Positions 1 to 27,382 of a stretch of 64,000 nucleotides of DNA are shown one piece after another (positions within the stretch are counted from its first letter, which is position 1; each line of letters starts with the position of its first letter). This DNA is from Candidatus Sabulitectum sp. Its GTDB lineage: Bacteria; Fermentibacterota; Fermentibacteria; Fermentibacterales; JCC-6. The stretch spans positions 10,007 to 74,006 of the forward strand of contig JAGLDY010000015.1 of NCBI GenBank assembly GCA_023145375.1, in the 5' to 3' direction. The notes beneath the pieces were generated by a model, which searched no databases, was not told the DNA's origin, and saw nothing but the letters and a program-made list of their open reading frames with translations. Both the position numbers and the translations under genes were made by a program.

Positions 1-2595
1 CTGGCAATGAAGTGCCTTGCCGGGTTCAGATTGCCATAACTATCCGGGAGGGTTTTGTATTCAGCAACCTCCATCTCATGGGTACTCGATTTGAAATGAC
101 CACAAGCAATACCCAAGTCGGTAAAGAATGGAATTTGCACAAGATCAGATTCTGAGGTCTCAATGAAATGTGGCCTGTCTGCTTGAGCTTTTCTCGCATT
201 GTATTGCTCATAACGATAGTTGACAAGCTCCATAACCATCTGTTCTACGGGGCTATCTACAACAGAAACAATATCAGCCTTGAAAACAAACCGATCATCA
301 ATCACCTCGAATTGCGCTCTGTTAGCAGTGGCATTGCCTCCAACCCATGCATTGATGGGATTACCCTTCCAGTAAGTAATCCACCTCTTCTCAATAGCAG
401 AATAGTCCTCAAATGGAACCTTGAATTTCTCTGGCAAATCTCCCTGGCACTTTTTCCTTCGTGTCATTACCTTAAATGAACGTCTAGCAAGATCGGTAAT
501 AGTGGGAGCAGTAGAGAAGCCATCCAGATCAAGTAATGCTTCAAGAAGAATCATCTTGAATGATTTTACCATTGAAGTAGATTCTACCTCGGCAAGAAAG
601 TCACCGTAAGAATTAAGTGAATCTATTTCACCGGTACCAATATCCTTCTGTGATTCCAGGAACTTGAACCATTGTCCGTGTTCTCTTCTAATTGCAGGGA
701 TGCCCCCGCCGGCAATATAGAATTCAGATAGTGTTGGCCTACGCCCAAATGAAGTTTTGAGAGATTGGTAGAAGTCGGTTTGCATATCTGTTCTTGTTTT
801 AAGAAGCCCTCTCAGAAATTCAATTGTTTCCAGATCGTAATTTAGGAAACAACCAGGAGGTAGCATTACCTTTTTCTCTTCAATCATCTTCAAGAATTTT
901 CTTCTCGCCTGATTGGTTTTCTCTAGTTTGAACATAGCTTCAAATTTCTTAAAGAAACTCAGATGATTCCCGATGAAATCAAGCACTACTAAGTGGTTCT
1001 TTCCTACATTGGTTCGAAGACCACGACCCAACTGTTGTAGGAAAAGAATCTTTGATTCCGTGGGTCTAATCATCAATACCGTATCAATTTCTGGTAAGTC
1101 AACACCCTCATTGAAAAGGTCAACTGAAAACAGAACTTCAATTCTCCCGTCCCGGAGCATCTGCAAAGCTTCGTTCCGTCTTACACTTGATTTGCTATGA
1201 ACGGAGCTAGCTGAAATGCCATTCTGTGAAAAAAACTCAGCCATGAAATCAGAATGCTTTGTTGAAACACAAAAGGCCAGTGTTTTTGCCTGCTTCTTCT
1301 CTTTCCAAACCCGAAGAATGTGATTTGCTCTGGCTACTGTTGCCAGTTTGTTGTCAAGTTTTTCGGGATCAAACTTTCCATTTCGCCATGGAATTTCTTG
1401 GTAATCAACACTACTATCAGCAATACCATTGTAGTGAAAGGGGCAGAGCAAATGCATTCTTATGGAGTCAAAGAGATCATTTTGAATTACCAAATTGTTA
1501 TCACAGAGAGAAAGAATGTCTGCCTGGTCAGTTCTGTCGGGAGTGGCAGTAAGCCCCAGTAAGAATCGAGGTGAAAAGTGAGCCAACAGTTTCTGGTATG
1601 TTCTTGCAGCAGCGTGGTGGAACTCATCAACCACTATGTAGTCAAAGTAATCCTCTGGGAATTTCCTCAGATGATTCATCTTACCAATGGTCTGTATCGA
1701 GGCGAACAACAGATCAGCATCTATGTCTTTGCTTTTCGCAGTGTATTTACCAACACTTGCTGTGGGACGAATGCGAATAAATGTATCCTCTGCTTGTTTA
1801 AGAATCTCTTCTCTGTGGGCTACAAACAATATTCGTTTGGCATTCACTGCTTTAGAATCGAAAGCCGCCAACCAGGTTTTTCCAGTACCGGTTGCCATAA
1901 CAACTAAACCTCGCTCATTGCCAGCAGCCCTTGTTTCTGCGAGTAGCTTCAAAGCTATTACTTGAATATGGTTTGCCTCTGGAGTAACACTCTTCTCATC
2001 CGCGCCTGGCTGAGTTTGGAAAGCTACTCTTCCTTGCGGTCTACGCGCTGCATAGGCTTCAATCCAGGCATTTGTAATCTCTTTTGTTTTGCTGTGATTG
2101 AATATCTGATCAAATTGGTATCTGAGTTCTTCGAACCTCTTGGGATTTTCTTTCCAGTCTACCCGGAGATTCCACTCAAAACCATGAGTCAAAGCAGATT
2201 TACTAATGTTGCTTGACCCAATGAAGGCACGCCCATCAATAAGAACATCATTCTCAGTTCGAACGAAGAGATATGCCTTCATATGAAAGCTGTGACCCTT
2301 GCTCTCGAAGATTCTTGATTCTGCTCCATTTTCTTGCAGCACAAGCAGAGTACGCAAAGCTTCAGGATCTGTAACACATAGGTAGTCCCCTGTGAGGATT
2401 CGTACTTTTGTTCCTGCTTCAAGAGCATCAAGTAATGCATCAAATAGGAGTCGTATGCCTGGAGACATCACAAACCCCACTGCAATATCTATTTCAGTAG
2501 CATGATTGATTGTCTGTAAAAGCTTTGGTAGAAACGGATCTTTTTTGCCACCAGCAGTAAGATGATCCTTAATATATGGAAATTGTTTACTCATA
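1..2595 (-). CDS. PLD-family (HKD) nuclease fused to an SF2 DExH helicase with a C-terminal DUF3427-like region. The 3' end runs off the window start.
   Basis: Translating the minus strand from the ATG (complement of cat 2593-2595) gives MSKQFPYIKDHLTAGGKKDPFL... The protein has an HKD motif (SFHMKAYLFVRTENDVLIDGRAFIGSSN), Walker A (VVMATGTGKTW), DEFH (VVDEFHHAAA), TAT (LGLTATPDR) and motif VI (QQLGRGLR). It is absent from the ORF track because there is no in-window stop. Confidence 0.8.
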
Positions 2596-2971
2596 CAGCA
2601 GTCCCACCAGAGAACAAATTTATCACTTTCTCAGCAAGTGGTACATCAGCAGGAGCAAGGTCCCAATCAAGCAAAGAATCAACAGGAACCCACTCAACAC
2701 GATCATGAACTGTAGGGGTAAGGGATCCATTCACAATCTTAGCCTCCAATAGAACCAGTGTTACAGAGAACCCATCATAGTGATGCGTGTTCTCTGCAAC
2801 CAGAGCACCTACCTCAGTAGTGATCCCAAGCTCCTCAAGCAACTCCCGCTGAAGGCAATCGCAATCGCTTTCACCTTCTTCAACCTTGCCACCGGGGAAT
2901 TCCCAGTAACCGGAGAGCTTTTGATCAGGAGCTCTGCGACAGAGAAGGACTCGGTCAGTATTCTCAATCAA
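2591..2971 (-). CDS. NUDIX hydrolase (MutT-like)
   Basis: The Nudix box GGKVEEGESDCDCLQRELLEELGI is present. The stop overlaps the downstream helicase start in an ATGA overlap, so the two are translationally coupled. Confidence 0.85.
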   Translation of the reverse strand: MIENTDRVLLCRRAPDQKLSGYWEFPGGKVEEGESDCDCLQRELLEELGITTEVGALVAENTHHYDGFSVTLVLLEAKIVNGSLTPTVHDRVEWVPVDSLLDWDLAPADVPLAEKVINLFSGGTAV

Positions 2972-2979
2972 GGCTGCTG

Positions 2980-3414
2980 TTACTCGTATGGGGATAGTTC
3001 AGCCTCATTCCTAAAAGATTGTGCAGGAAAAATTAGATTATCCTTTAAAAACCTCTGTAGCATGCCAATCAAGATGCTCTTTATTTGGGCGCCATGGCTC
3101 ATCGCTTGGAGTCGCAATTTTTCCACCATTGTGTCGAAACTTGAAGCGCCGTTCATTTTACTAAAGCAATCCCACGCCAACCATGCAGGAAGGCTCTCGT
3201 ATCTCTGGAAGAAACCGAATCCTGCAATCGCCTTTTGAGGAGCACGTAGTTTAAAGAAAAATATGTCACCAGGTTTCAGCGCACGAAAGGCTCTATTTCC
3301 ATGAGGTTGCCAGAAGTTAACTTCATCAACTTTTGGGTAATTCCGTAAAAATGAGTACCAATTAGGATCTGTGAGACCAACATAGCCTTTCTGGATGTTC
3401 AACACAGTTTCCAA
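2980..3414 (-). CDS. Hypothetical 144-aa protein, possibly a PUA-like (EVE-like) fold
   Basis: It is the first gene of the operon and lies 8 nt upstream of the NUDIX gene. The segment NRAFRALKPGDIFFFKLRAPQKAIAGFG weakly resembles the GDxxFFY...IAG core of EVE/PUA-like domains. The fold assignment is uncertain. Confidence 0.45.
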   Translation of the reverse strand: METVLNIQKGYVGLTDPNWYSFLRNYPKVDEVNFWQPHGNRAFRALKPGDIFFFKLRAPQKAIAGFGFFQRYESLPAWLAWDCFSKMNGASSFDTMVEKLRLQAMSHGAQIKSILIGMLQRFLKDNLIFPAQSFRNEAELSPYE

Positions 3415-3500
3415 TCTCGGTTAGTCTTACAAGCTAGCACGAGCACAACCAAATTATTCTATTCGTACTTTGACCCATTGTCCAGAGCTTCATCTCTGCG

Positions 3501-6500
3501 TTAAAAGAGGAGTTTCTTCAGGTCTTCGAAGGTTTCGGTTATGGGTGACTTGAGAATAGCTTCACGGTAGTGGTCGTTCTCAACGCTGTTGATGTGGTTT
3601 TGGAATAGGGTTTCAGCTCTTTCGAAAACTTCTGTGCTTTCTGCCTTCTTGTTCTGATGGAAGAGGCATTCTGCCAGGGTGGTTAGTATCTCGATGTCCT
3701 GGATTGAAGGGACTTCGTCTATTATGGCTGCAGCTGTTTTCAGCGTTTCTTCGGCTTCTTTAAGTGCTATGGTTTTATTGATGTTCGGGTTATTCAGCCG
3801 CTCAATACCCCTGAAGCCCAGTAGCAGTCTTTTTGTAGTGGTGTCTGCATTTTCAATCTCTTCACCGTTTTCAAGTTCCGTGAGTACTGCGTCTGCCTGC
3901 TGGAATTCATTGCTGGTGAGCAGCAGACCGGCAAAGTCAATTCTTGTGCTGAGAGCCATATTGCTGAGTCCCAGCTCATCTGCAAGGTCAATTGCCGTTG
4001 TGAGGTGTTTTTTTGCATTGCTGTAGTTCTTCTCTTGTTTTTCCAGCAGTCCCAGATAGTAGTTTGCCCAGACAGAGGCTGATCTGAAGCCGGTGGTCTC
4101 CACAAGTTTCAGGCTGCGTTCCAGGTAGTCTCTGGCAAGGCTGTACTGCATGGCGGCGTGGTATGTCTCACCCAGATTTATGTAAGCAACAAGGGTTGCG
4201 TGGGTATCACCCACCTGTATTAATACTTTAAGGCCATCGTTGAGGATGTTTATCCTCTGTTCATACTTGCTGGTCAGTCGGAGAGTTACAGCGGTGTTTA
4301 GAAGAGCTTTGGCTTCGCCAAGCTTGTCGGAGAGCTCCCTGTAAAGGACAACTGCCTTGAGGCATGCTTCAGTGTTCTCCGGCTGGGGTCTTCTGTTCTG
4401 TGCGATAAGACCCAGTGTCATGTAGTAATCTGCAAGCAGTTCTTTCCTGAGGTTGTCTTCTGTGATTGCATGTATCTCGGGGAGGATGCTTTCCAGGAGA
4501 TCCAGACTTTTTGTCTCCGTGTCCAGCAGATCCAGGAAGTGAGCCATCTGGATGTGCGCTTGTATTCTTCTTTTCCCGGAGGGCAGAAGATCAATGACTG
4601 ATTTGTACAGGTTGAAAGATTTACTGAAATCACCTCTTTTAGAGTACATCATTGCTTCCTGAAATTGGATGTCAGCCAGTTGTTTGTCATCGGTGGCAAG
4701 TGTCTCAGCAGCTTTAAGAACCTCCGAGGCTTCATCGTACTTGCCGAAGAGGCTGTACAGCGTGCCCAGGTCCAGCCTTGCCTTGTAAGCTTCTCCTTTA
4801 TCTTCTTTTGAGAGATCATCAAAGAGCATGTACTGCTTCAACCAGCGAAAAGCTTCTTGCGCAGCGCCCTTTTCCATAGTCTGTGCAGCGGCCAGAAGTG
4901 CAAAGTGTCTGGCTTTCCTGGAGTTCAGGCTGTCACAGTAATGGTGGGCGGCAAGAGGGACAACTGTTTCATCTCCGCTGTTTTGGTTTTGCTCATAGAA
5001 CTGGCCGAATCGGGATTGAAGCGCTTTGCGGATTCCCAGAGAGAGCTCCTGGTACAGGTAGGTACGCATGGTGTCGTGGATGAACTGGTATTTTAGAATA
5101 CTTGATTCTTCAAGTCTTTCATGTATCAGTCCTCTTCTCAGAGGTTCTTCAAGAGTTCTTGCCAATTCCAGCTCATCTCTGCGGAGCACTGCACTTATCG
5201 GTTCCAGCGAGAATGAACCACCGGGCATCATTGAGCCTGCGCAGAGAACTTCTTTTTCCTGGTCGGTGAGCTCTTTAAGCCTTTCTTCCATAAGTACCGA
5301 TATTGAATCAGGCAAAGACATGTCATCTGCTATCTGATAAGTCCATCCTCCTTTTGCTGCCGGTTCAATTGCTCCTTTATTCCTGAGGGAAAGTAAGAGT
5401 TCCTTAAGGTAGAGGGGATTACCACTGCATTGTTTTACAAGTTTTTGAAGAATGTCTTTGGGAATATTGGGGTCACGGAGGGCAAACAAGACCATGTGTC
5501 TGGTGTACTCTTCATTAAGAGCTTTAAGTTTTATTGATTTGTAGCGGGCAATACCGGAGAGCTCTTTCAATTTCTTCCTGATCTCCGGAAAGCTCTCTGT
5601 GGGAGCACGCATGGTTGCAAGGAAGAGAACCGGCAGATCTGTTGCTGCTCTGATCAGATAGGCAAGCAGATCAAAGTCATGCTCTGATATCCAGTGAAGG
5701 TTGTCTGTGGTGAAAATTACAGGTTGCCTGGATGCTGTCCATTGCAGGATCTGTGAGATCTCTGAATACATTCTCAATCTGAGTATGCTGTCTTTGTCGG
5801 TGGCAGGTGCAGGTGCTGTTCTCAGATTCAAATTGTTGAACAATTCCTGAGTTTGAGGCAGAATGGCAGGTAGTGTATTCTGCAGATCTGTCAGATCATC
5901 CGCCGGCAGTGTGTTGAGGTAGTCTGTTATCGGGTCGGATATGAGCAGATAGGGCCTGTCTGCGCCAAGCTCGTCGCATCTGGTCTTTATTATTATGCAG
6001 TTCTTGAAACTTGAATAGTGTTCAAGCTCATTCGTCAGTCTGGTTTTCCCCACTCCCGGTTCACCGGAGATAACAACAAAGTGACTTTTGCCGCAGGTTG
6101 TGTTGTTCAGGGCATTTCGCAGCTCAGTGAGTTCTTCACCTCTGCCCACAAAATGCTCGAATGTGATCTCCTTTTCTGTTTCTTCTTTTTGATGATCTTC
6201 GTAGAAGGAGACCCGCCCAAGCCCGCCCTTCTTCGCCTGGTAGAGAGCCTTGTCTGCCCGTTCCAGAATATCCGCAAGATGGTGGTCCTCCGGCTTGCTC
6301 TCCGCTACTCCTATGGAAAGGCCAATTTTCATTCCTTCAGAGAATACTTCCCGTTCAAGGGCCTGCAGTATCCGCTCTCCCTGGTTGACGGCTTTAAGGA
6401 GCTCAGTTTCAGGCATCACAATCACAAATTCATCTCCACCGTAGCGGATAAGAGTATCTGTGCCTCTTTTGTTCCTGGAAAGAATATTGGCAACTCTTCT

Positions 6501-6679
6501 GATAACGCTGTCACCCTCAAGGTGTCCGAATACATCGTTAACCAGCTTGAAGTGATCAATGTCTATTATTGTGAGAGACCATGTCTCATCGATTATGTCT
6601 GAGACCGGTTGTCCAGTTCATCCATAATGTCCCGGGTGTGGAGGCCGGTGAGATGGTCCAGTTTTGTCTTGTTTGTCAT
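3501..6679 (-). pseudogene. GGDEF-STAND NTPase-TPR paralog 1. Its N-terminal GGDEF domain is split by a -1 frameshift near 6599. The intact ORF 3501..6425 encodes the C-terminal part of GGDEF plus the NTPase and TPR.
   Basis: ATG at 6679 gives MTNKTKLDHLTGLHTRDIMDELDNRSQT, then a stop. The next frame continues IIDETWSLTIIDIDHFKLVNDVFGHLEGDSVIRRVANILSRNKRGTDTLIRYGGDEFVIVMPETE, which is collinear with paralog 2. The long ORF carries ISGEPGVGKTRL, NLHWISEHD, GNPLYLKELL and TPR-like repeats. Confidence 0.6.
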
Positions 6680-6705
6680 ATACCTTCCCTCAAAAGATAA
6701 CCCGA

Positions 6706-6888: not shown

Positions 6889-9800
6889 TTACTGCTTCAG
6901 GAGTTCGCGGAGCTCTTCAAAAGTAGTGAAGATGGGTGACTGTAAAATGGTTTCGCGGTAATGGTCGTTCTCTATTTTGTTAATGGTGTTGTTCATAAGG
7001 GTATCAGCTTGTTTGAAGGTTCTGATACTTTCTTCCACTTTGTTTTGTTTGTGCAGGCATTCAGCTAAAGTAGTCAGGAATTCCAGTTGAAGAAGGGTTG
7101 GCTCATCATCCAGATCTGTGGTTGCGGCTCTTAGTTTATCTTCAGCTTCTTTCAGAGCCCGGGGTCTTTCAAGAGCCGGATTGTTCATCCTCTCAATACC
7201 TCTAAGACCAAAAAGCAGTTTTTTCTGTGAGGGATCTATTTTATCTAAGCCATGATCGGTTTCCAGGCTGGTGAGATCAATATCCGCCTGCTCGTACTCA
7301 TCGTTCTTTATGAGTATTCCCACATAGGATATTCTTGTGGTAAATGCCATGTAGTTCATACCCAGTTCTTCTGCAAGGGTAATTGCTGTGGTGAGCCGCT
7401 TCTTGGCATTGTTGAATTTGCCTTCTTCTTTGTCCACCAGCCCCAGGTAGTAGTTTGCCCATATGGAAGCCGGTCTGTAGCCGGCGGACTCTACAAGCCT
7501 AAGGCCCCGTTCAAAGTAGTCTCTTGACAGGTCGTGCTGCATAGCGCCGTAGTACGTCTCACCCAGGTTGATGTAAGCCACGAGGATCGAATGGGCATCA
7601 CCCACTTGAATAAGTGCTTTAAGACCCTGGTTAAGGGCGTCGATCCTCTGTTCAAATTTATTGGTCAGACGCAGAGAAATGGCAGTGCTGAGAAGAGCTT
7701 TTGCTTCCCCGACCTTATCGGAAAGCTCCCTGTACAGGGCAACCGATTTCCTGCAGGCTTCTGTGTTCTCAGGCTGAGGTCTTCCCTCCCGTGCGAGGAG
7801 AGCAAATTTCATGTAGTAGTCTGCAAGAAGCTCTTTCTTGAGGCTTTCCTCATTGATACTCTGGATATCAGGGAGTACGCTTTCAAGCTCATCAAGGCCG
7901 GTACCGCCTGTGCCAATCAGGTCCTGATAGTGAGCGATCTGAATCTTAGACAGTATACTGACCCTGCCAACCGGCAACAGATCAATTGCTGACCTGTACA
8001 AGGTACATGCCTCTTCGTAGTCTCCTCTTTTGGAACACATTTCCGCTTCCTGAAAGTGGACATTTCCCGTTTGCTCATCGCTGGTGGCCAGTGTTGATGC
8101 TGACTTAAGAGCTTCTGAGGCCTCATCGTATTTACCGTAAAAACTGTAGAGTGTGCCCAGTTTGATCCTGGCCAGAAAAGCCTCCTGCTTATCCTCTTTG
8201 GACAGATCAGCAAAACGCATGTAATGTTTCAGCCAGCGGAAGGATTCACTTATTGCACCTTTTGCCTTAGTGTGAGTTGCCGCCAGGAGTGCGAAATACC
8301 TGGCTTTACCAGAATCCAGGCTGTCACAGTAGTGGTGGGCAGTAAGAGGAATAACCGTTTCGTCCCCTTTGTTGTACATGTTCTCGTAGAAGAGTCCGTA
8401 CCGGGACTGAAGCGATTTGCGGACTCCCATAGAGAGTTCCTGATAGAGAAATGTACGCATGGTATCGTGGATGAACTGGTATTTCAGGATATTGAATGCT
8501 GATAGTTTCTCTGTAATAATTCCCATTCTCAGAGGTGCTGCAAGGGCCTTTGCAACTGCCAGTGGGTCCAGATCGAGCACTGCACAGACAGGTTTCAGCA
8601 TAAATGAGCCACCGGGCATCATGGAGCCGGTACAGAGAATTTCCTTTTCAGAACCGGTGAGTTTTTTTACCCGCTCTGCCATAAGTGCTGATACTGAATC
8701 AGGTAAAGGCATATCATCGGTTATCTTGTAAGCCCATCCACCACTTGCTACCGATTCTATTGCCCCGGTACTGTGCAAAGTTATTAGAAGCTCTTTGAGG
8801 TACAACGGGTTACCGCTGCATTGCTTGACCAGTCTTTTTAGAATATCTCCCGGGATCTTCGGGTCACGGAGAGCAAACATGACCATGTGTCTGATGTATT
8901 CTTCGTCAAGAGCGGAGAGTTTGAGTTCAGTGAGCTTTATGATGCTTGAGAGGATCTTGAGCTTCTTCTCTATCTCAGGAAAGTTCTTTGTGGGAGCCCG
9001 CATGGTCGCAATGAACAGAATTGATAGAGTTCCTGATGCTCTGGCCAGGTACGCCAGCAGATCGTAGTCATGCTCTGATATCCAGTGAAGATTATCAACT
9101 GTTAGGATAACCGGCTGTCTGGAAGCTATCCATTCCAGTATCAGCCATATCTCTGAATACATTTTCAGCCGCAGTACGCTCTCTTTATCTGTTTCAGCCA
9201 TGGGTACTGTTCCCAGGTTCAGATCAGGGAACAGTTCTGCAGTCTGGGGAAGGAGACCGGGCAGTGAGTTCCTCAGGTCTGTGATATCATCGTCCGGCAG
9301 AGTCCTTAAATACTCGGAGATGGGGTAAGTAATGGTAAGGAATGGCCTTTCATTACCAAGCTCATCACATCTGGTTTGAAGAGACAGACAGTCCTTGAAG
9401 CTGGAGTAGTGCTCAAGCTCATTCGCCAGTCTGGTCTTGCCTATCCCCGGTGCACCGGAAATAAGAATAAAATTACCAATACCGTTCACTGTGTTGTTCA
9501 GTGTGTCACGAAGCTCGGAGAGTTCGTCAATTCTTCCTACGAAATGTTCAAAAGTTATCTTGTTGTCAGAGTCGATCTCTGAGAGTTCCTGATGGAATGA
9601 GACTCTGCCTCTGCCACTCTTTTTTGCTTCATAAAGAGCTTTGTCTGCCCTTCCCAGTATGTCTGCAAGAAGGTTGTCTGTGGGCCTGCTCTCAGCAACA
9701 CCGATGGAGATCCCGATTTCCATTCCGTCCGGAAAGACCTCCCGTGCAAGACACTGCAGAATTCTCTCTCCATGGTTAACTGCTTGAAGCTGCTCGGTGC

Positions 9801-10074
9801 CGGGCATGATTATCACAAATTCATCCCCGCCGTATCTGATAAGGGTATCTGTATTTCTTCTGTTTCTGGACAGGATATTTGCAACCATCCTGATAACTTT
9901 GTCACCCTCAAGATGGCCAAATACATCGTTCACAAGCTTGAAATGATCGATATCAATGATCGCAATGGACCAGATATCTGCCCCTGCAGCTTCAGAGAAC
10001 CGGGAATCCAGTTCATTCATGATGCCCCGTGTGTATAGACCGGTCAGATCGTCCAGTTTGTTCTTGCTTGTCAT
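6889..10074 (-). CDS. GGDEF diguanylate cyclase-like domain, STAND/AAA_16 P-loop NTPase and TPR repeats, paralog 2 (intact, 1061 aa)
   Basis: The GGDEF domain has an RxxD I-site (RRNTDTLIRYGGDEF), followed by ADKALYEAK and FEHFVGR. The NTPase has Walker A ISGAPGIGKTRL and Walker B-like ILTVDNLHWISEHD, followed by GNPLYLKELL and a C-terminal TPR-like helical region. An RBS (GGGAGG) precedes the ATG at 10074. Confidence 0.85.
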   Translation of the reverse strand: MTSKNKLDDLTGLYTRGIMNELDSRFSEAAGADIWSIAIIDIDHFKLVNDVFGHLEGDKVIRMVANILSRNRRNTDTLIRYGGDEFVIIMPGTEQLQAVNHGERILQCLAREVFPDGMEIGISIGVAESRPTDNLLADILGRADKALYEAKKSGRGRVSFHQELSEIDSDNKITFEHFVGRIDELSELRDTLNNTVNGIGNFILISGAPGIGKTRLANELEHYSSFKDCLSLQTRCDELGNERPFLTITYPISEYLRTLPDDDITDLRNSLPGLLPQTAELFPDLNLGTVPMAETDKESVLRLKMYSEIWLILEWIASRQPVILTVDNLHWISEHDYDLLAYLARASGTLSILFIATMRAPTKNFPEIEKKLKILSSIIKLTELKLSALDEEYIRHMVMFALRDPKIPGDILKRLVKQCSGNPLYLKELLITLHSTGAIESVASGGWAYKITDDMPLPDSVSALMAERVKKLTGSEKEILCTGSMMPGGSFMLKPVCAVLDLDPLAVAKALAAPLRMGIITEKLSAFNILKYQFIHDTMRTFLYQELSMGVRKSLQSRYGLFYENMYNKGDETVIPLTAHHYCDSLDSGKARYFALLAATHTKAKGAISESFRWLKHYMRFADLSKEDKQEAFLARIKLGTLYSFYGKYDEASEALKSASTLATSDEQTGNVHFQEAEMCSKRGDYEEACTLYRSAIDLLPVGRVSILSKIQIAHYQDLIGTGGTGLDELESVLPDIQSINEESLKKELLADYYMKFALLAREGRPQPENTEACRKSVALYRELSDKVGEAKALLSTAISLRLTNKFEQRIDALNQGLKALIQVGDAHSILVAYINLGETYYGAMQHDLSRDYFERGLRLVESAGYRPASIWANYYLGLVDKEEGKFNNAKKRLTTAITLAEELGMNYMAFTTRISYVGILIKNDEYEQADIDLTSLETDHGLDKIDPSQKKLLFGLRGIERMNNPALERPRALKEAEDKLRAATTDLDDEPTLLQLEFLTTLAECLHKQNKVEESIRTFKQADTLMNNTINKIENDHYRETILQSPIFTTFEELRELLKQ

Positions 10075-10234: not shown

Positions 10235-11659
10235 ATGAAGAAGACCAAGATAGTTGCAAGCATTTCAGATCTGAACTGCTCGGAAGAGTTCATTCGCTCG
10301 CTTTATGAGAATGGTATGAATGTGGTTCGAATCAATTCTGCTCACCAGTCTCTTGCAGGTGCCCTTAAGATAGTCAATGCAGTCCGGGCTGTTTCCTCTC
10401 GTATTGCTCTGATGATGGATACCAAAGGGCCTGAGATCAGAACAGGATCATTTTCTTCACCCTTCATTGTTGATGATGGTGAGATTGTTGGTCTGGGGGA
10501 GAGATGTGATTCTTTTTCCGGGGTCTGCATTCCTGTGACTCATTCGGAGTTTGCCGGTGATGTGCCTGTTGGAAGCAGCATACTCATCGATGACGGAGAA
10601 ATAGAACTGCTGGCCCTTGAGGTTAAGGGGAATTGCCTTCTTTGCAGGGTGATTCACGGCGGTGAGATAAAGAGAAAGAAAAGTGTGAATGTCCCCAATG
10701 TGTACATAGGGCTGCCCTCGCTCAGTGAAAGAGATCTCAAGTACATTGATTTTTCCATCGATAACAGACTGGACTTTATCGCTCATTCTTTTGTTCGCTC
10801 CGGTGCTGATGTGGAAGCTGTTCAGGAAATTCTTCTTCAACGGGGAAGCAGTATCAAGGTGATCGCCAAGATAGAGAACCACAACGGTGTTGAGAACATT
10901 GATGAGATACTTGATGTTGCTTACGGCGTAATGGTCGCAAGGGGAGACCTTGCCATTGAGATACCCTTCGAGAGGGTACCTGGAATTCAGAAAATGCTCA
11001 TCAACAAGTGTATTGAGCGAAGAAAACCGGTGATCATTGCAACTCAGATGCTTCACAGCATGATCGAGAACCCCAGGCCTACCCGTGCAGAGGTCAATGA
11101 TGTTGCAAGTGCCATATACGATCAGGCTGATGCAATCATGCTAAGTGGGGAGACAGCAATTGGTGCTTACCCCCTGGAAGCTGTACAGACCATGACTGCC
11201 ATAGCAGGGGAAGTGGAGACAGACAAAGAGGATATCAACGACATTCCAATTGTTGTGATCAATAATGAAATATCAGCATTCCTTATTAAATCTGCTGTGG
11301 AAGGTGCGGTGGAGCTTAATGCTCACGCTGTTATTGCCGACACCACATCAGGGAGAACTGTGAGAAGCCTTTCCGCCTACAGAGGAAAATGCCCCATTCT
11401 GGCCCAGTGCTACAACAGTGAAACCGTGAGACACCTTGCTCTTTCATACGGAGTGTCAGCCAGGTTCATGGAACCGGAGCAGATAACCCATGAGTTTGTA
11501 GGCAAGGCTTTAAGCTTACTCCTGTCCGAGAATGCTTTAGACATTGAGGATCAGGTAGTTGTTGTAGGGGGTAACTTTGGAAGAAGCAAAGGTGTTTCCT
11601 TTGTTGAAATAGGTTCCGTGGAGAACCTTCTTACAGCTGAAGACATCTTATCAGTCTAA
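10235..11659 (+). CDS. pyk: Pyruvate kinase
   Basis: The N-terminus is MKKTKIVASI...VRINSAHQ, followed by MMDTKGPEIRTG and the MVARGDLAIEIP motif characteristic of pyruvate kinase. It is 474 aa. Confidence 0.9.
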   Translation: MKKTKIVASISDLNCSEEFIRSLYENGMNVVRINSAHQSLAGALKIVNAVRAVSSRIALMMDTKGPEIRTGSFSSPFIVDDGEIVGLGERCDSFSGVCIPVTHSEFAGDVPVGSSILIDDGEIELLALEVKGNCLLCRVIHGGEIKRKKSVNVPNVYIGLPSLSERDLKYIDFSIDNRLDFIAHSFVRSGADVEAVQEILLQRGSSIKVIAKIENHNGVENIDEILDVAYGVMVARGDLAIEIPFERVPGIQKMLINKCIERRKPVIIATQMLHSMIENPRPTRAEVNDVASAIYDQADAIMLSGETAIGAYPLEAVQTMTAIAGEVETDKEDINDIPIVVINNEISAFLIKSAVEGAVELNAHAVIADTTSGRTVRSLSAYRGKCPILAQCYNSETVRHLALSYGVSARFMEPEQITHEFVGKALSLLLSENALDIEDQVVVVGGNFGRSKGVSFVEIGSVENLLTAEDILSV

Positions 11660-11721: not shown

Positions 11722-12543
11722 CTACTCCGAAGCAGTACCTTTCCAGGGGTTGCCTGGTAATCTTGTCAGCAGCTTATCTTGAATGATGTTTGCAGCAATT
11801 GCAGTGTTGTATTCGATATCTGCTGGAATAAGCAACCGAATATCGTCCAGAAATGCTTTGCTCAGCAGTTTGGATGCCAGATTTGCTTCGAACTGTGCTC
11901 GAGAAACTCTGAGGCCATCTCTGGATATGTAGCTTTGAAAGCACTCGATAATCCTGTCAGGTCTTGCCTCCTCCACGCTTAGCGCCTGCCAGAGATCATA
12001 AAGATCACGGCCTTTTCTGCGTTGATACAAAGCGCGTAACTTGGTGCCCAGAAGCTCTTCAAGAGAGTAGATAGAGATATTGGAAGTGCCTGTAAACCAC
12101 GGATTTACAACAGCATAGGGATGCATTTCAATGCCCAGTACTGTAAAATGCTCTCTGGTATTGATCTCTATCTTTACTCGCCTGGTGGATACGGGGGCAA
12201 AAGAGGTTTCAAAAGCGTAGTAAAGAGTGAACCGCCCTTTTCCCTGTTTCCATGCCGGGTCACCAAGCCATGAATCGAGAGTACTTCGGATTGCAGTTAT
12301 CAGTTTTCCTATTGGGCCTGAATTTCTCTGGACGAGGTCAATATCCTCCGAGTAGCGACCAGGCCGGGTGAAAAGCATCTTGTGAAGTGCTGTACCTCCA
12401 CGAAAAACGGCTTCATCAGCAACAACTCGACTGGAGAACAGAGAAACCAGTACCCGGGATAACACAAGATCCTGTTCTACCTGGTCGTTGGAAGGCCAGG
12501 GTGCACTTGATCGCCATGCGGTTATGTTTGCACGGGGAATCAC
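11722..12543 (-). CDS. abiEii: AbiEii/DUF1814-family nucleotidyltransferase (type IV toxin-antitoxin / abortive-infection toxin component)
   Basis: The motif FRGGTALHKMLFTRPGRYSEDIDLV is the AbiEii nucleotidyltransferase signature. The gene overlaps its upstream partner by 4 nt. Confidence 0.75.
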   Translation of the reverse strand: MIPRANITAWRSSAPWPSNDQVEQDLVLSRVLVSLFSSRVVADEAVFRGGTALHKMLFTRPGRYSEDIDLVQRNSGPIGKLITAIRSTLDSWLGDPAWKQGKGRFTLYYAFETSFAPVSTRRVKIEINTREHFTVLGIEMHPYAVVNPWFTGTSNISIYSLEELLGTKLRALYQRRKGRDLYDLWQALSVEEARPDRIIECFQSYISRDGLRVSRAQFEANLASKLLSKAFLDDIRLLIPADIEYNTAIAANIIQDKLLTRLPGNPWKGTASE

Positions 12544-13328
12544 GAGTCTGGCTCAAGTTTTACATTGGGTACAACACGCCACCTTGAATCGGGAAGAGCA
12601 TTTGTTGCCTTGCCCGGAAGTAATGGAACAGGTCTTAGCTTTTTTGGAAGACACAGGAGAAGTGATGAAGCTGTTTCAGCATGTCCCGTAACCTCCAGCA
12701 GGTAGCCAAGACGCTGAACATCAGGAATTCGAACAAGTGGAGCGATTTCAGCCAGAGCATTCTTATTTATTAGCTCTGCCAATTCGTTAAGTACAGTTAC
12801 AACATTACTGAGATGGCCAGCTTCTGATGGATTGCGAACCAGATCGAATGCTGTTGTTTCCGGAGTAGCTACACGCATAGTTCCTGTTTCCGTCTGCTTG
12901 AGTACAACCGGGAACTGTTTGACACGACTGTTCATTGAGAAGTGAATTGTGACTTTATCCAGGTGCATCTCCCTTGTTGGTTTGTTGGTAACCACCTGGA
13001 AAACCATGGGTTGCTGGTGAGCAGCGCCGTGAATAGAAGCGGCACTCAGAAAGCTCACATAGTAAGGTTGTTCCAGAAAAAGCATCAAATCGTGGATAAA
13101 CCAGCTTGCTGGAGGCGATCCTACAGTTCTGTATTCCGGCGGAACAAGAACAAAGAACCCTCTCCTCGGGGAGACTATTCGTTTCTGCTTCTTAAGTCTC
13201 CTCAGTGCGGCTTGCACTGCAATCGGGGAACGGCCTGTAGCACTTTCGGTCTGGGTGACGGTAAATGTGTACCGCCCCTTGGTCTGAAGCTGATCCAGCC
13301 ACTGTGACATTACAGGAATCTGTTTCAT
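12540..13328 (-). CDS. abiEi: AbiEi-family antitoxin / transcriptional regulator (COG5340-like)
   Basis: It has an N-terminal wHTH-like region and an AbiEi-like C-terminal domain. It is translationally coupled to the AbiEii gene in the canonical order, with the antitoxin upstream. Confidence 0.65.
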   Translation of the reverse strand: MKQIPVMSQWLDQLQTKGRYTFTVTQTESATGRSPIAVQAALRRLKKQKRIVSPRRGFFVLVPPEYRTVGSPPASWFIHDLMLFLEQPYYVSFLSAASIHGAAHQQPMVFQVVTNKPTREMHLDKVTIHFSMNSRVKQFPVVLKQTETGTMRVATPETTAFDLVRNPSEAGHLSNVVTVLNELAELINKNALAEIAPLVRIPDVQRLGYLLEVTGHAETASSLLLCLPKKLRPVPLLPGKATNALPDSRWRVVPNVKLEPDS

Positions 13329-14508: not shown

Positions 14509-17500
14509 TCATTCTCTCTCCAGCTGCTTTTTCAGCTTTGCCAGCTTTTTAGCTGTTGTTGATTCCAGTATCTTCTGCCTGTAGTGATCGCTTCCTATGG
14601 CTGAAACAAAAACACTGAACATGTTCTGTGCTCTTGTGAGGGCTTCGCCGGCTTCAGTCATCTTGTTCTGTTCCTGGAGACATTCAACCAGTGTACCCAG
14701 CAGGTCTATCTCTCGGATAGAGGGCTCCTCCTCTGTATCTGATGTGGCGTTACGAAGATTTTGTTCCGCCTCTTTCAGGGCACTGGTTCTTTCCAGTGAG
14801 GGGTTGTTCAGCCGTTCGGTGCCTCTGTACCCCAGAAGAACTTTTCTAGTTGCACCGTCCATTGTTTTCATTGTCTCTTCGGTTTCCAGTTGCGTAAGAT
14901 GAATGTCTGCTTCTTTGAAGTCCTTTTTGTTTATCAGCATTGTCACCAGGTTCATCCTTGCGTTCAAGGCCATGGGGGCAAGACCCAGTTCATCTGCAGA
15001 TTCAATGGCTTTTTTGTATCCCATTTCCGCACTGGAATAGTTCTCATCTCTTGTATCAAGGTTCGCCAGGTAGCTGTTTGCCCAGATACCAAATCTTTTC
15101 GTGCCTGTTGCCTCCACCAGGTCAAGACAGCGCTGGAAGTAGTCTCTGGCCAGATCAAAATCCATTGCACTGTAGTGAGCTTGTCCAAGGTTAATGTAGG
15201 CACCCATGATGGCATGGGTATCACCTGTCTCTGTGAGTACTTTCAGTGCATCATTTAGGATGTTGATCCTGACCTCGTACTTGCTGGTGGCGAAGAGAGA
15301 TGCTGCAGTGTTCAGCAGAGCTCTTGCCTCGCCTGTCTTGTCCCCCAGCTGGCGGTAGATAGTGACTGCCTTCAAACACTCCTCGGTACTGTCAACCCGG
15401 GAAAAGATATTCAGAGCAATTGTACCGTGCCTCATGTAGTAAGTAGCCAGCAGATGCTTTCTCTCCCGGACATTTTTGATAGATTGTATTTCTTCCTTAA
15501 TTCCGTTCAGTCCCTGAAAGCCTTTTTCTTCTGATACGGTAAGGTACTGTATGAAAGCTATCTGCAATTTCGCTAGAATTCTTTCCTTTCCAGGAGGGAG
15601 CAGGGCTATCGTTGTTTTGTAAAGGCTGTCTGCAGTACCGTAGTCACCCATGTTGAAATGCAGATGTGCTTCCTGAAATCGAAGCAGAGCCGTCTGATCG
15701 ACGGTGGTTGCAAAAGCTACTGCATCCTTCAGTATCCCAGTTGCCTTGCTGTGTTCGGCAAAGAGGGTGTGAAGTTTTCCCAGCTCCAGCCTGGCATAGA
15801 AAGCTTCCTGCCTGTTTTCTTCCACACCTACTGAAAAGGCCATATACTGTTCCAGCCAGCGAAGCGCATCACGCTTGGCATCCCTGTTGTCTGCCTGTTT
15901 TTCGGCCAGAAGAGCGAAGCGCATTGCTTTTACAGGATCCAGACTGTCGCAGTAGTGGTGGGCTGCCAGTGGAACAATGGCAGTGTTGCCATGGTTGTAT
16001 ATCTCTTCATAGTAGAGCCCAAACCTGGATTGAAGTGCCTTCCGGGTACCCTGAGAGAGGTCATGGAGGAGAAAAGTGCGCATGGCATCATGGATGAAAT
16101 GGTACTCGAGTATTTTGAACTGGGAGAGATGCTCAAAGATTAGTTTCAGTTTGAGGGGGCCTTCAAGAGCTTTTGCAATTTCCAGTTCATCCCGGTGAAG
16201 GATTGCAGAAAGAGGAGCAAGTGAGAACGAGCCACCGGGCATAAGTGATCCGGCGGAGAGAACATCTCTTGTGAAAGGGTCAAGTCTATCAAGCCGTCCG
16301 GACATCAGCTGAGAGATCGTTGCCGGAAGTGGAAGATCGCTGGTTATCTTGTAGATCCAACCCCCCTCTGCAGCAGGTTCAATGGCACCGCTGTTTAGTA
16401 AAGACAGAAGTAGTTCTTTAAGGTAAAGAGGGTTGCCGCCACTCTGTTTCACAAGCATCTGAAGGACATCCCCGGGGATCTTCGGGTCACGAAGTGCAAA
16501 CATTACCATGTGTTTTGTGTACTCTTCATCCAGTCTTCCAAGGTTGATAGAGGTGAACCGAACAAGACTTGAAAGAATCCGTATCTTCTTCCTGATCCCA
16601 GAAGGGTCCTCCTGGGATTCATTTATGGTTGCAATGAATATTATGGGAACATTCTCTGTTGCTCTTATCAGGTAAGAAAGAAGATCAAAGTTATTGTCGG
16701 ATATCCAGTGAATACTATCCACAACGAATAGAATCGGCTGTCTGGATGCGATCCATCGCAGAATGGAAGATATCTCCAGGTAGATCCTGAGTCTTACCAC
16801 ACCTTCTTCGTCGGTTGATGGCGCTTTGGCCAGCTTCAGCTTAAGGTCGGGAAACAACTCAGCAGTCTGAGGCAGGATTTTCGGGAGGACTTTAGCCAGG
16901 CTCTCCAGATCATCTTTCGAGAAGGTCAGAAGCTTTTCTGCAATGGGGCTGGTTATCTGCTGATAGGGCTTGTCTGCGCCCAGTTCATCACAACTGCTCT
17001 GAAGGAAAAGACAATCCTTGAATCTGGAATAGTGTTTCAGCTCACTGATCAGTCGTCTTTTGCCTATCCCCGGTTCACCTGAGATGAGGGCGAAGCGTCC
17101 CTTCCCGGTTATTGTTTCATTCAAAGCATTTCGGAGGGTAGAAAGATCTGCCTGCCTGCCCACAAAATGCTCAAAGGATATCTCAGCACTTTCTTTTTTT
17201 GTATTCTTGTCTTTGTGGAAGGAAACTTTACCCCTGCCTCCGCTTTTTGCTTCGTAGAGAGCTCCGTCTGCCCTTTTTAGTATGTCTGCAAGATAAAGAT
17301 CCTCAGGCTTGCTCTCTGCAACACCAATTGAAAGACCCACATCCATTCCCTGGGAAAAAACTTCCCTTGCCAGCCCCTGAAGAATTCTCTCCGCCTGGTT
17401 TACAGCCTTCAACTGCTCCGTATGAGGCATAACTATGACAAACTCATCTCCTCCGTACCGAAGAAGAGTATCTGCTCCCCGACAGTTTCGGGAAAGGATA

Positions 17501-17697
17501 TTGGCTATGCGCCGGATCACCATATCTCCTTGAAGATGACCGTAAACATCGTTCACAAGTTTGAAGTGGTCGATGTCGATTATCATCATAGACCATATAT
17601 CCCTGCCCTCTTCCGCTGAGAATTCACGGTCAAGGTCATCCAGGATCCCGCGGGTGTGCAGGCCGGTAAGATCATCCAGTTTGTTCATTGAAGTCAT
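14509..17697 (-). CDS. GGDEF, STAND/AAA_16 NTPase and TPR, paralog 3 (about 1062 aa). The start is taken at MTSMNKLDDLTG.
   Basis: The motifs are RGADTLLRYGGDEF, ADGALYEAK, FEHFVGR, ISGEPGIGKRRL, FVVDSIHWISDNN and GNPLYLKELL. An RBS (GGAG) precedes the ATG at 17697. The ORF track start at 17919 adds a non-homologous extension. Confidence 0.8.
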   Translation of the reverse strand: MTSMNKLDDLTGLHTRGILDDLDREFSAEEGRDIWSMMIIDIDHFKLVNDVYGHLQGDMVIRRIANILSRNCRGADTLLRYGGDEFVIVMPHTEQLKAVNQAERILQGLAREVFSQGMDVGLSIGVAESKPEDLYLADILKRADGALYEAKSGGRGKVSFHKDKNTKKESAEISFEHFVGRQADLSTLRNALNETITGKGRFALISGEPGIGKRRLISELKHYSRFKDCLFLQSSCDELGADKPYQQITSPIAEKLLTFSKDDLESLAKVLPKILPQTAELFPDLKLKLAKAPSTDEEGVVRLRIYLEISSILRWIASRQPILFVVDSIHWISDNNFDLLSYLIRATENVPIIFIATINESQEDPSGIRKKIRILSSLVRFTSINLGRLDEEYTKHMVMFALRDPKIPGDVLQMLVKQSGGNPLYLKELLLSLLNSGAIEPAAEGGWIYKITSDLPLPATISQLMSGRLDRLDPFTRDVLSAGSLMPGGSFSLAPLSAILHRDELEIAKALEGPLKLKLIFEHLSQFKILEYHFIHDAMRTFLLHDLSQGTRKALQSRFGLYYEEIYNHGNTAIVPLAAHHYCDSLDPVKAMRFALLAEKQADNRDAKRDALRWLEQYMAFSVGVEENRQEAFYARLELGKLHTLFAEHSKATGILKDAVAFATTVDQTALLRFQEAHLHFNMGDYGTADSLYKTTIALLPPGKERILAKLQIAFIQYLTVSEEKGFQGLNGIKEEIQSIKNVRERKHLLATYYMRHGTIALNIFSRVDSTEECLKAVTIYRQLGDKTGEARALLNTAASLFATSKYEVRINILNDALKVLTETGDTHAIMGAYINLGQAHYSAMDFDLARDYFQRCLDLVEATGTKRFGIWANSYLANLDTRDENYSSAEMGYKKAIESADELGLAPMALNARMNLVTMLINKKDFKEADIHLTQLETEETMKTMDGATRKVLLGYRGTERLNNPSLERTSALKEAEQNLRNATSDTEEEPSIREIDLLGTLVECLQEQNKMTEAGEALTRAQNMFSVFVSAIGSDHYRQKILESTTAKKLAKLKKQLERE

Positions 17698-17772
17698 TCT
17701 CACTCCTACAGAATGGTGAGCAACTGTGAGCGCATGTGTTTCAAGACTATCTCCTCCTAAAAGATGTATCAG

Positions 17773-17801
17773 AAGATATGCCTGTTGGTTCGGATATGCA
17801 A
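17773..17801 (-). promoter_or_regulatory. Promoter-like TTGCAT-N17-TATCTT element upstream of paralog 3, with a 5' UTR of about 75 nt
   Basis: On the plus strand, aagata lies at 17773-17778 and atgcaa at 17796-17801. The spacing and hexamers match the sites upstream of paralogs 1 and 2. Confidence 0.4.
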
Positions 17802-18197
17802 TACATCGGTTGCCATATCCAGGAGTTGCAAAGGAACCTCCTTCGTGCTTAACATCTGTATATTTATGAACGGCATAAAGAAACACTTCAGGGCACGGCA
17901 AATTGATCATGATTTCCACAAGAAAGCCAACTGTCGCTGTTCCGGAAAGCCATACCGGAATCTGTTTGACATGGTTTCATATCTGCGTTCCTTCCCTTGC
18001 CTTGAGCGGTGCCGGGGACAATACTATTTCCAACGAAAAGGAATCAGGTTTTTTGCAGGAGGATAGAATGGGTTCATTTCCGACTGATATTGAGATATCA
18101 GCAGGTGTCATTATGAGAATGCCAGGGTTGCCGGTATCTCCCGCTGCGGGGAAGATGGATGTGGATGAACAGGGGAATGTGACGGGACTCTTCTAGG

Positions 18198-26767: not shown

Positions 26768-27382
26768 TCAGGGGCTTTGGGCAGTGACGTTCAGCCAGAC
26801 AGTGTTCTCTCTTTTTAGACCGTCGGTGGATTCAGTTACTTCCATTACTACCAACCCGGAGGTTTCGATCTGTCTGGTCCACCAATCTCTGTTCTTCAGA
26901 GTGAATGTTCTGGATTCACCCGGAGAATTCTCTTCTCTTTCAGTGCAGACGGATATAAACATGATGCCACCTGGCATAAGAAGTCCGGCTATTCTATTGA
27001 TGGTTTCAACTATATCTGGTTCAGGTAGATGCATCAGTGCGGCTATGGAATAGATGCCGTCATATTTGCCAGTCTCCCGTGCCAGGTCTTCAGGCAGTTC
27101 AAGTTTTCTGAGGTACGGAGATAGCTCGGGGTGTACTTCTGCCGCTCGACGAAGCATCTCATTACTGCCATCTGTGATCGTCAATTTCCTGCCGGTGGAA
27201 CTGCTCAGGAGAAAAGCTGCATCTCTCCCTGAACCGCAACCAAGTTCCAGGATGTTTCTGCATTTCTTAAGAGCGTTCAGCAGCTCGTTCTGAAGCTTGC
27301 CAACATCAGCAGACTCGTATCTTTCTGCCAGTCCTCTCGCTTTCTTATTGTAATGCCTAATTGTCTTGTCTTCAGATATCAC
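26768..27382 (-). CDS. Class I SAM-dependent methyltransferase
   Basis: Motif I is ILELGCGSGRDA. Confidence 0.7.
   Translation of the reverse strand: MISEDKTIRHYNKKARGLAERYESADVGKLQNELLNALKKCRNILELGCGSGRDAAFLLSSSTGRKLTITDGSNEMLRRAAEVHPELSPYLRKLELPEDLARETGKYDGIYSIAALMHLPEPDIVETINRIAGLLMPGGIMFISVCTEREENSPGESRTFTLKNRDWWTRQIETSGLVVMEVTESTDGLKRENTVWLNVTAQSP

Follow-up and report, generated by a model that had tools for sequence, protein, structure and literature searches.

A NUDIX gene coupled to a SauUSI-type restriction gene, beside the remnant of a PUA-HNH endonuclease gene, in Candidatus Sabulitectum

A 64,000-nucleotide (nt) stretch of Candidatus Sabulitectum sp. DNA (assembly GCA_023145375.1, contig JAGLDY010000015.1, positions 10,007 to 74,006; the whole stretch is hereafter referred to as the window) begins with three open reading frames (ORFs) on its minus strand. 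An original prediction saw in them an operon that, if a weak EVE/PUA resemblance of the first gene product were real, would join a modified-base sensor, a NUDIX hydrolase and a nuclease-helicase. Our analysis resolved this apparent three-gene operon into a two-gene module, a SauUSI-type restriction gene with a NUDIX companion, and a third gene that is a broken remnant: the upstream "hypothetical protein" is a pseudogene of a PUA-HNH endonuclease, and its annotation should be corrected. Type IV restriction modules of this kind are known; the locus presents one with a new domain arrangement, lying beside a dead neighbour, and is not a new three-part system. We consider it probable that the functional unit, with the role of the NUDIX protein discussed below included, consists of a MutT/NudG-like NUDIX gene translationally coupled to a single-chain, ATP-dependent, modification-dependent (type IV) endonuclease of the SauUSI family, the upstream ORF being a dead remnant.

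The ORFs lie at 2980-3414 (144 amino acids, aa), at 2591-2971 (the NUDIX ORF) and, for the large gene, from 2594 to beyond the window start. The tight linkage that had been described was recovered from these coordinates: the 144-aa ORF is separated from the NUDIX ORF by 8 nt, and the NUDIX gene shares 4 nt (ATGA) with the large gene, so that its stop codon overlaps the helicase ATG.

The part of the large protein encoded in the window is 100% identical to P0041, a protein of 1110 aa encoded in a metagenome-assembled genome of Candidatus Sabulitectum; the complete gene lies at L083:9378-12710. When it was compared with solved structures by phmmer, the best match was SauUSI (7CLG; E 3.6e-93, aa 13-561), and the continuous alignment spans SauUSI residues 32-578, covering both the nuclease and the ATPase. 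The PADLOC model mREase_IV (type IV methyl-directed restriction enzyme) matched the window part with 3e-106 and the full-length protein with 2e-120. Both results bear out the expectation that this is a restriction-like nuclease-helicase. Equally well founded was the claim that an HKD nuclease of the PLD family and a complete DExH helicase core share one chain. Matches to PLDc_2, ResIII and Helicase_C were obtained, the FHMKAY and GSSNIS motifs align with FHAKGY and GSSNLT of SauUSI, and the helicase motifs ATGTGKT, DEFH, TATP and QQLGRGLR are legible in the translation. The reading frame is open over all 1110 codons, with the PLD and helicase motifs intact. The order of domains is PLD nuclease, DExH helicase, coupler region, S24-like domain and SRA/DUF3427 reader.

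In the SauUSI structure the nuclease and the superfamily 2 (SF2) ATPase are followed by a helical coupler (residues 618-805) and an SRA-fold reader (residues 806-953) (PMC7913695). The segment of the large protein at about aa 560-830 matched no Pfam family at E<=1 and would, judged by position only, be equivalent to this coupler. The C-terminal part of the ORF inside the window consists of this putative helical coupler region and the first ~26 residues of the S24-like domain. No Pfam match to DUF3427 was obtained with the proteins of the window. PF11907, the C-terminal half of DUF3427, was found at aa 991-1104 of P0041 (1.1e-21), beyond the window. The DUF3427-like C-terminus that had been predicted is therefore present in the full-length protein and absent from the part that the window encodes. 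A second, weak stretch of similarity to SauUSI joins aa 999-1084 of P0041 to SauUSI residues 839-920 (i-Evalue 0.01). The 5-methylcytosine (5mC) pocket of the SauUSI reader includes Phe-841, Ile-842, Asp-858 and Trp-868 (PMC7913695). Their counterparts in P0041, according to the alignment, are Leu, Val, Asp and Trp, with Asp-858 corresponding to D1017 and Trp-868 to W1027. Judging from the PF11907 match and this alignment, the P0041 C-terminus appears to be an SRA-type DUF3427 reader that keeps equivalents of Asp-858 and Trp-868.

Between the coupler and the reader P0041 carries an S24 domain (LexA/UmuD/cI-like), of which only the beginning is encoded in the window. The serine of its GNSM motif is invariant in 20 family members. 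The catalytic lysine was compared by a single-sequence search of the Protein Data Bank (PDB), in which only weak matches to lambda cI were obtained (E 0.19-0.9). They place a Leu, next to the invariant Arg-918, at the position of Lys-192, with the register uncertain by one residue. The S24 domain may have a regulatory function that is unusual or does not involve proteolysis.

The linkage between the NUDIX and helicase genes was surveyed in 80 species-representative genome loci (L001-L080) and in the two closest metagenome contigs (L081 and L082). In the five closest genome loci, and in L082 as well, the gene that directly precedes the helicase gene on the same strand is a NUDIX homologue. In L082, whose helicase is 79% identical to that of the window, the two genes likewise overlap by 4 nt. 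In L004 the NUDIX homologue is immediately upstream of the helicase gene on the same strand, and in L081, whose contig ends within the upstream flank, a partial NUDIX gene lies at the edge. Relatives belonging to different phyla share the 4-nt overlap. The two proteins diverge in step, NUDIX and helicase identities being 74% and 79% to L082 and 60% and 66% to L004. The ratio of nonsynonymous to synonymous substitution rates (dN/dS) of the NUDIX gene is 0.12 against L082 and 0.12-0.15 overall; the NUDIX gene is under purifying selection. Neighbour-joining placed seven of the eight NUDIX-linked proteins in one clade, which includes three methyltransferase-only loci, and the eighth, L005, represents an independent case. 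In L001-L003 NUDIX is fused to the methyltransferase that is the family's other partner. Because overlap and adjacency are kept in relatives, the divergence is in step and the linked proteins form one clade plus L005, we conclude that the linkage is conserved in the closest relatives (L082, L004 and, in part, L081), so that the refuting condition attached to the original prediction does not apply, and that NUDIX is a real, conserved partner of the helicase gene.

A NUDIX enzyme had been thought unusual in such a setting. This is not so: a conserved MutT/NUDIX gene of unknown function was described next to sauUSI and at least 60 homologues (Xu et al. 2011, PMC3141236), and a S. aureus strain in which the NUDIX gene upstream of sauUSI had been deleted retained restriction (Monk et al. 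2012, PMC3312211).

The NUDIX protein of the window is small and consists of a single domain with an intact Nudix box, GKVEEGESDCDCLQRELLEELGI (pattern GX5EX7REUXEEXGU), and no internal stops. Its PADLOC match, PDC-S07, is among the candidate families for phage defence in PADLOC-DB. The gene is damaged at its 5' end. Two start choices have been made, TTG at 2971 (126 aa; the ORF caller) and ATA at 2989 (132 aa; NCBI). The TTG, selected by other gene callers too, lies nine codons into the first strand of the protein. The codon homologous to the start of the relatives, at 2993-2995, is ATC, and no canonical start that would cover the first beta-strand is present at the homologous position. In-frame stops directly precede TIPIRVTAAL in the window protein; the L082 NUDIX begins with MHHIPIRVTAAL. 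An alignment with L082 DNA revealed that the window lacks ~11 nt that include the L082 ATG. A small lesion, separate from the one in the neighbouring ORF, has removed the canonical start codon.

The 144-aa ORF belongs in part to a family that numbers at least 7990 proteins, 313-319 aa long, which have a C-terminal HNH_2 domain and are annotated as putative restriction endonuclease or HNH endonuclease. When six full-length members were used as tblastn queries, their aa ~5-96 matched 3390-3115 of the window in one frame (E about 1e-50), and with all six queries aa ~290-319 matched 3130-3041 in frame -2 (E 3e-8 to 2e-6). The 3' remnant, which ends in EHLDWHATEVFKG followed by a stop codon, matches the C-terminal consensus of the family, RELLEWHxxEVFxG. 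Columns conserved in at least 90% of the family are kept at 54 of 56 positions in residues 1-98 and at 6 of 22 in residues 99-140, and no database protein covers the tail of the ORF except the same organism's own copy. From this comparison about 185 internal codons (aa ~97-289), encoding the end of the PUA domain, the linker and the entire HNH domain, have been deleted. Today's ORF continues, in the wrong frame, through the former 3' end and the former intergenic spacer. Rather than an operon subunit, it is what is left, now dead, of an independent PUA-HNH type IV-like endonuclease that neighboured the module. The missing HNH domain was sought in another frame or downstream and was not recovered: beyond the deletion nothing survives but the last ~30-37 codons, and the space before NUDIX is too small for it. 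Assembly error was likewise considered as the source of the deletion and of the lost NUDIX start and rejected. Two European Nucleotide Archive (ENA) and two Logan assemblies from different runs, fetched via the NUDIX protein P0281, are 99.93-100% identical and gap-free; an exact-sequence lookup of P0001 gave no match. Since the four independent assemblies agree without gaps across it, the lesion is real.

The N-terminal domain of the intact family, like the 144-aa ORF, matched no Pfam, NCBIfam or PADLOC model. Its fold was modelled with AlphaFold2 (AF2) from a 127-sequence alignment; a shallow 27-sequence alignment had given a predicted local distance difference test (pLDDT) value of 52. Comparison of the model with known structures gave values of 10.6 for ZmASCH (5GUQ), 8.9 for AF2351 (2KKU), 8.4 for an EVE protein (2AR1), 7.5 for THYN1 bound to 5mC DNA (5J3E), 7.2 for an archaeal McrB N-domain, 6.1 for the EVE-HNH enzyme VcaM4I (6YEX) and about 6 for YTH domains, and Foldseek matched the domain to ASCH at 7e-5. 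The domain is thus predicted to have a PUA-superfamily fold that is structurally closest to ASCH, not to EVE. The HNH part of the family is similar in sequence to that of VcaM4I (6YEX; 5e-8). In its intact form the family is one of the PUA-HNH modification-dependent endonucleases, a class already known (PMC6765204). Of the suggestion that the first gene encodes an EVE/PUA-like protein, the PUA-type fold of the family domain stood; the window copy itself is broken and provides no sensor subunit.

The PUA-HNH family is not a conserved neighbour of the module. No member was found upstream of NUDIX in L082 or L004, the two closest relatives with an available upstream flank, and none in L081, with its truncated flank. 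The family profile matched 1 of the 82 related loci, L001, where the member is full-length and divergently oriented; the other 81 had none. In L004 (Thermotogaceae) the gene upstream of NUDIX (L004:4465-7167) encodes a ~900-aa SMC/AAA_27-type ATPase and not a PUA-HNH protein. In L005 (Desulfuromonadales) the genes ahead of those for NUDIX, methyltransferase and PLD-helicase (L005:11-1832) encode an HNH_2 protein of another kind and a small PLD nuclease standing on its own. The L005 arrangement suggests that small nucleases recurrently cluster beside the module.

A class I S-adenosylmethionine (SAM) methyltransferase accompanies the helicase in at least 63 of the 80 species-representative loci (for example L005:2267-6169 and L002:6964-7953). 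In 40 of these it is fused to the N-terminus of the PLD-helicase and in 23 it is encoded just upstream. By Pfam it is of small-molecule type (Methyltransf_25/11/23, TehB-like) and belongs to no recognised DNA methyltransferase family. No methyltransferase lies next to the helicase gene in the window, L082 or L004, nor in L081 as far as its truncated upstream flank extends. The helicase gene, compared across the copies of the window subclade, is intact and has a low nonsynonymous rate (dN). Because these copies keep an intact, low-dN helicase with no adjacent methyltransferase, the methyltransferase is argued not to be needed for self-protection, that is, not to be a self-protecting DNA methyltransferase. 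Another class I SAM methyltransferase is encoded on the minus strand at 26768-27382. As a partner acting in trans it is an unlikely candidate, with 35% identity to the consensus of the partner methyltransferases and an M20 peptidase gene beside it; it is probably a paralogue unrelated to the module.

Four rival explanations were weighed. That the 144-aa protein is a stand-alone modified-base sensor acting with the NUDIX hydrolase and the nuclease-helicase is largely refuted and scarcely credible. The PUA-superfamily fold of its family is real, the ORF is open, on the same strand as the NUDIX ORF and ends 8 nt before it, a promoter-like site lies upstream, and L001 has a full-length family member beside its NUDIX-methyltransferase-helicase genes. 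Against it stands the structure of the ORF itself, in which homology is in frame only over aa 1-98, the rest of the domain and the HNH part are deleted and the ancestral 3' end lies out of frame. The C-terminal 45 residues match no other organism's protein. The distribution of the family points the same way: it is absent upstream of NUDIX in L082 and L004 and from 81 of 82 relatives, and the L001 member is divergent and full-length. That NUDIX is a housekeeping, MutT-like nucleotide sanitiser and a chance neighbour of the restriction gene is very unlikely in view of the 4-nt overlap kept across phyla, the divergence in step, the purifying selection, the independent acquisition in L005, the fusion to the methyltransferase in L001-L003, the same linkage in the distant SauUSI clade (PMC3141236) and the match to PDC-S07. 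On its side are best curated matches that are all to generic MutT/NudG-type models and below cutoff, the unchanged restriction after deletion of the gene upstream of sauUSI (PMC3312211) and the lack of a canonical start in the window copy.

Two further explanations concern the large enzyme. It might not be modification-dependent at all; the family would then be a single-chain restriction-modification-like or other conflict system, with self marked by the usually fused class I methyltransferase, and the window copy would rely on a methyltransferase encoded elsewhere or be inactive. The frequent fusion or adjacency of the methyltransferase in the family and the related gene at 26768-27382 would agree with this. 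We regard it as improbable, given the small-molecule type of the enzyme, the intact, low-dN helicases of three relatives of the window copy with no adjacent methyltransferase (the L081 flank being cut), the low identity and the M20 peptidase neighbour of the candidate in the window, and the reader, which keeps the Asp and Trp of the SauUSI 5mC pocket. Alternatively, the whole locus is decaying and neither NUDIX nor the large gene functions in this organism. A pseudogene directly upstream of NUDIX, a NUDIX gene that has lost its start codon and a frameshift in the next gene upstream would agree with this. It is nevertheless unlikely, since the large ORF is open for 1110 codons with intact PLD and helicase motifs, and NUDIX has an intact Nudix box, no internal stops and alternative starts, TTG or ATA.

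Several observations also weigh against the two-gene, modification-dependent module that we prefer. The NUDIX protein is an equivalog of neither enzyme after which it is described, scoring 93 bits (1.3e-26) against the NudG model, which has a cutoff of 156, and 69 bits (3e-19) against the MutT model, with a cutoff of 97.9. With no canonical start, the window copy may be poorly expressed or recently inactivated. The modification dependence is deduced from homology of the reader, whose direct match to SauUSI is weak (i-Evalue 0.01). The presence of a methyltransferase in most of the family is not predicted by a pure type IV model and is left unexplained by it. Finally, the lack of a transformation phenotype on NUDIX deletion in S. 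aureus (PMC3312211) fits an accessory role and equally no role in defence.

By analogy with SauUSI, the reader would flip out a modified cytosine, 5mC or 5-hydroxymethylcytosine (5hmC), this recognition would switch on ATP-driven translocation, and dimerised PLD domains would then cut the foreign DNA. Modified nucleotides arise on degradation of modified DNA and, if they were built back into the host chromosome, would present the restriction enzyme with targets. E. coli NudG hydrolyses 5-methyl-dCTP efficiently (PMC3744803, citing O'Handley 2001). Because NudG acts on such a substrate, because degradation yields such nucleotides and because their re-incorporation makes targets, we tentatively suggest, as one possible role, that NUDIX is an accessory protein, not required for cutting, that hydrolyses modified pyrimidine deoxynucleoside triphosphates (dNTPs) such as 5-methyl-dCTP or 5-hydroxymethyl-dCTP. 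Modified dNTPs so removed could neither enter host DNA, where they would lead to self-restriction, nor serve the phage. An accessory role of this kind fits the dispensability of NUDIX for restriction.

A broader proposal, which we offer as speculative and rather doubtful, is that NUDIX, perhaps together with the methyltransferase that in relatives is fused to it or to the nuclease-helicase, forms a nucleotide-pool arm of the SauUSI-type enzyme that destroys or alters modified dNTPs, and that the S24 domain is a LexA-like switch responsive to damage or single-stranded DNA (ssDNA). If this were true, the nucleotide-pool arm would spare the host chromosome from self-restriction while depriving phages with modified DNA of their building blocks, and the S24-containing subfamily would be a regulated, multi-activity defence system and not a simple type IV enzyme. 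What the NUDIX gene linked to SauUSI does has been a question since 2011. The pairing also persists in a distant branch that carries the S24 domain and extends over several phyla, and some members of this branch have NUDIX fused to the methyltransferase. These observations argue for a real functional tie and offer compact constructs for the modified-dNTP question.

Positions of the features of the locus are collected in the table.

Features of the restriction locus and of the adjoining remnant (positions in the window)
Feature	Position	Strand	Basis or remark
SauUSI-family enzyme, first 864 of 1110 codons (P0041)	1..2594	-	runs off window start
S24 domain (LexA/UmuD/cI-like), first ~26 residues	3..80	-	PF00717 1.4e-07, aa 839-952 of P0041; rest, including GNSM serine, beyond window
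Region between helicase and S24, ~aa 560-830	105..917	-	position of SauUSI alpha-helical coupler
SF2 DExH helicase-like ATPase core, aa 207-528	1011..1976	-	ResIII 2.7e-37, Helicase_C 1.2e-15 (Pfam)
PLD (HKD) nuclease domain, aa 25-163	2106..2522	-	PF13091 PLDc_2 5.1e-13
NUDIX hydrolase gene (MutT/NudG-like, PADLOC PDC-S07)	2591..2995	-	PF00293 1e-19; PDC-S07 2.1e-40
144-aa ORF	2980-3414	-	TTG start
Out-of-frame read-through tail, residues ~99-144	2980..3114	-	not homologous to family
3' remnant of the same ancestral gene	3038..3130	-	last ~30-37 codons and original stop 3038-3040, other frame
5' remnant of PUA(ASCH/EVE-like)-HNH gene	3115..3414	-	first ~98 codons in frame, well conserved
Sigma-70-like promoter match TGGACA-17-TAGAAT	3456..3484	-	upstream of remnant; 10/12 positions match

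The promoter-like match was the one well-placed hit of a promoter scan, but the number of matches in the region is not above chance, and its position alone is suggestive; it could drive the NUDIX and helicase genes. Upstream of it, on the minus strand, lies a GGDEF-AAA_16-TPR gene (3501-6680) with a frameshift near 6590-6605; residues 1-25 are encoded at 6606-6680 and residues 33 onward in another frame. It is one of three paralogous GGDEF-STAND-like-TPR (GGDEF-AAA_16-TPR) genes, the others being at 6889-10074 and 14509-17919. A pyruvate kinase gene (10235-11659) is followed by an AbiEii toxin/AbiEi antitoxin pair on the minus strand (11722-13328), ~8-10 kb from the restriction locus. AbiEi/AbiEii is a type IV toxin-antitoxin, or abortive infection, system. 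The defence context of the locus is loose.

In S. aureus, the principal obstacle to the uptake of DNA is SauUSI. Like P0041, the S. aureus enzyme (7CLG) is a single chain in which a PLD nuclease, an SF2 DExH ATPase and a coupler are followed by an SRA-fold DUF3427 reader at the C-terminus, and each has a linked NUDIX gene, SAUSA300_2432 in S. aureus and the gene immediately upstream in the window. The domain order is not identical, however: P0041 has the extra S24 domain (aa 839-952) between coupler and reader, and its reader is only weakly similar to that of SauUSI by direct comparison. Most members of the P0041 subfamily, moreover, carry a class I SAM methyltransferase, which is not described in the SauUSI papers (PMC3141236, PMC3312211, PMC7913695); a literature search for an S24/methyltransferase variant of the SauUSI family found no relevant paper. 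Compared with the PUA-superfamily-HNH endonucleases (the EVE-HNH enzymes VcaM4I and TspA15I, and ScoA3V; Lutz et al. 2019, PMC6765204), the gene in the window is a pseudogene that has lost its HNH domain. The N-terminal domain of its family is closest in structure to ASCH, not to EVE, and goes unrecognised by Pfam, NCBIfam or PADLOC models. The NUDIX protein is, like E. coli NudG (Orf135) and MutT, a small single-domain protein with a Nudix box, although it scores below both cutoffs. The S24 insertion and, in the wider family, the association with a methyltransferase set this variant apart from SauUSI; the linkage between NUDIX and SauUSI is itself already known.

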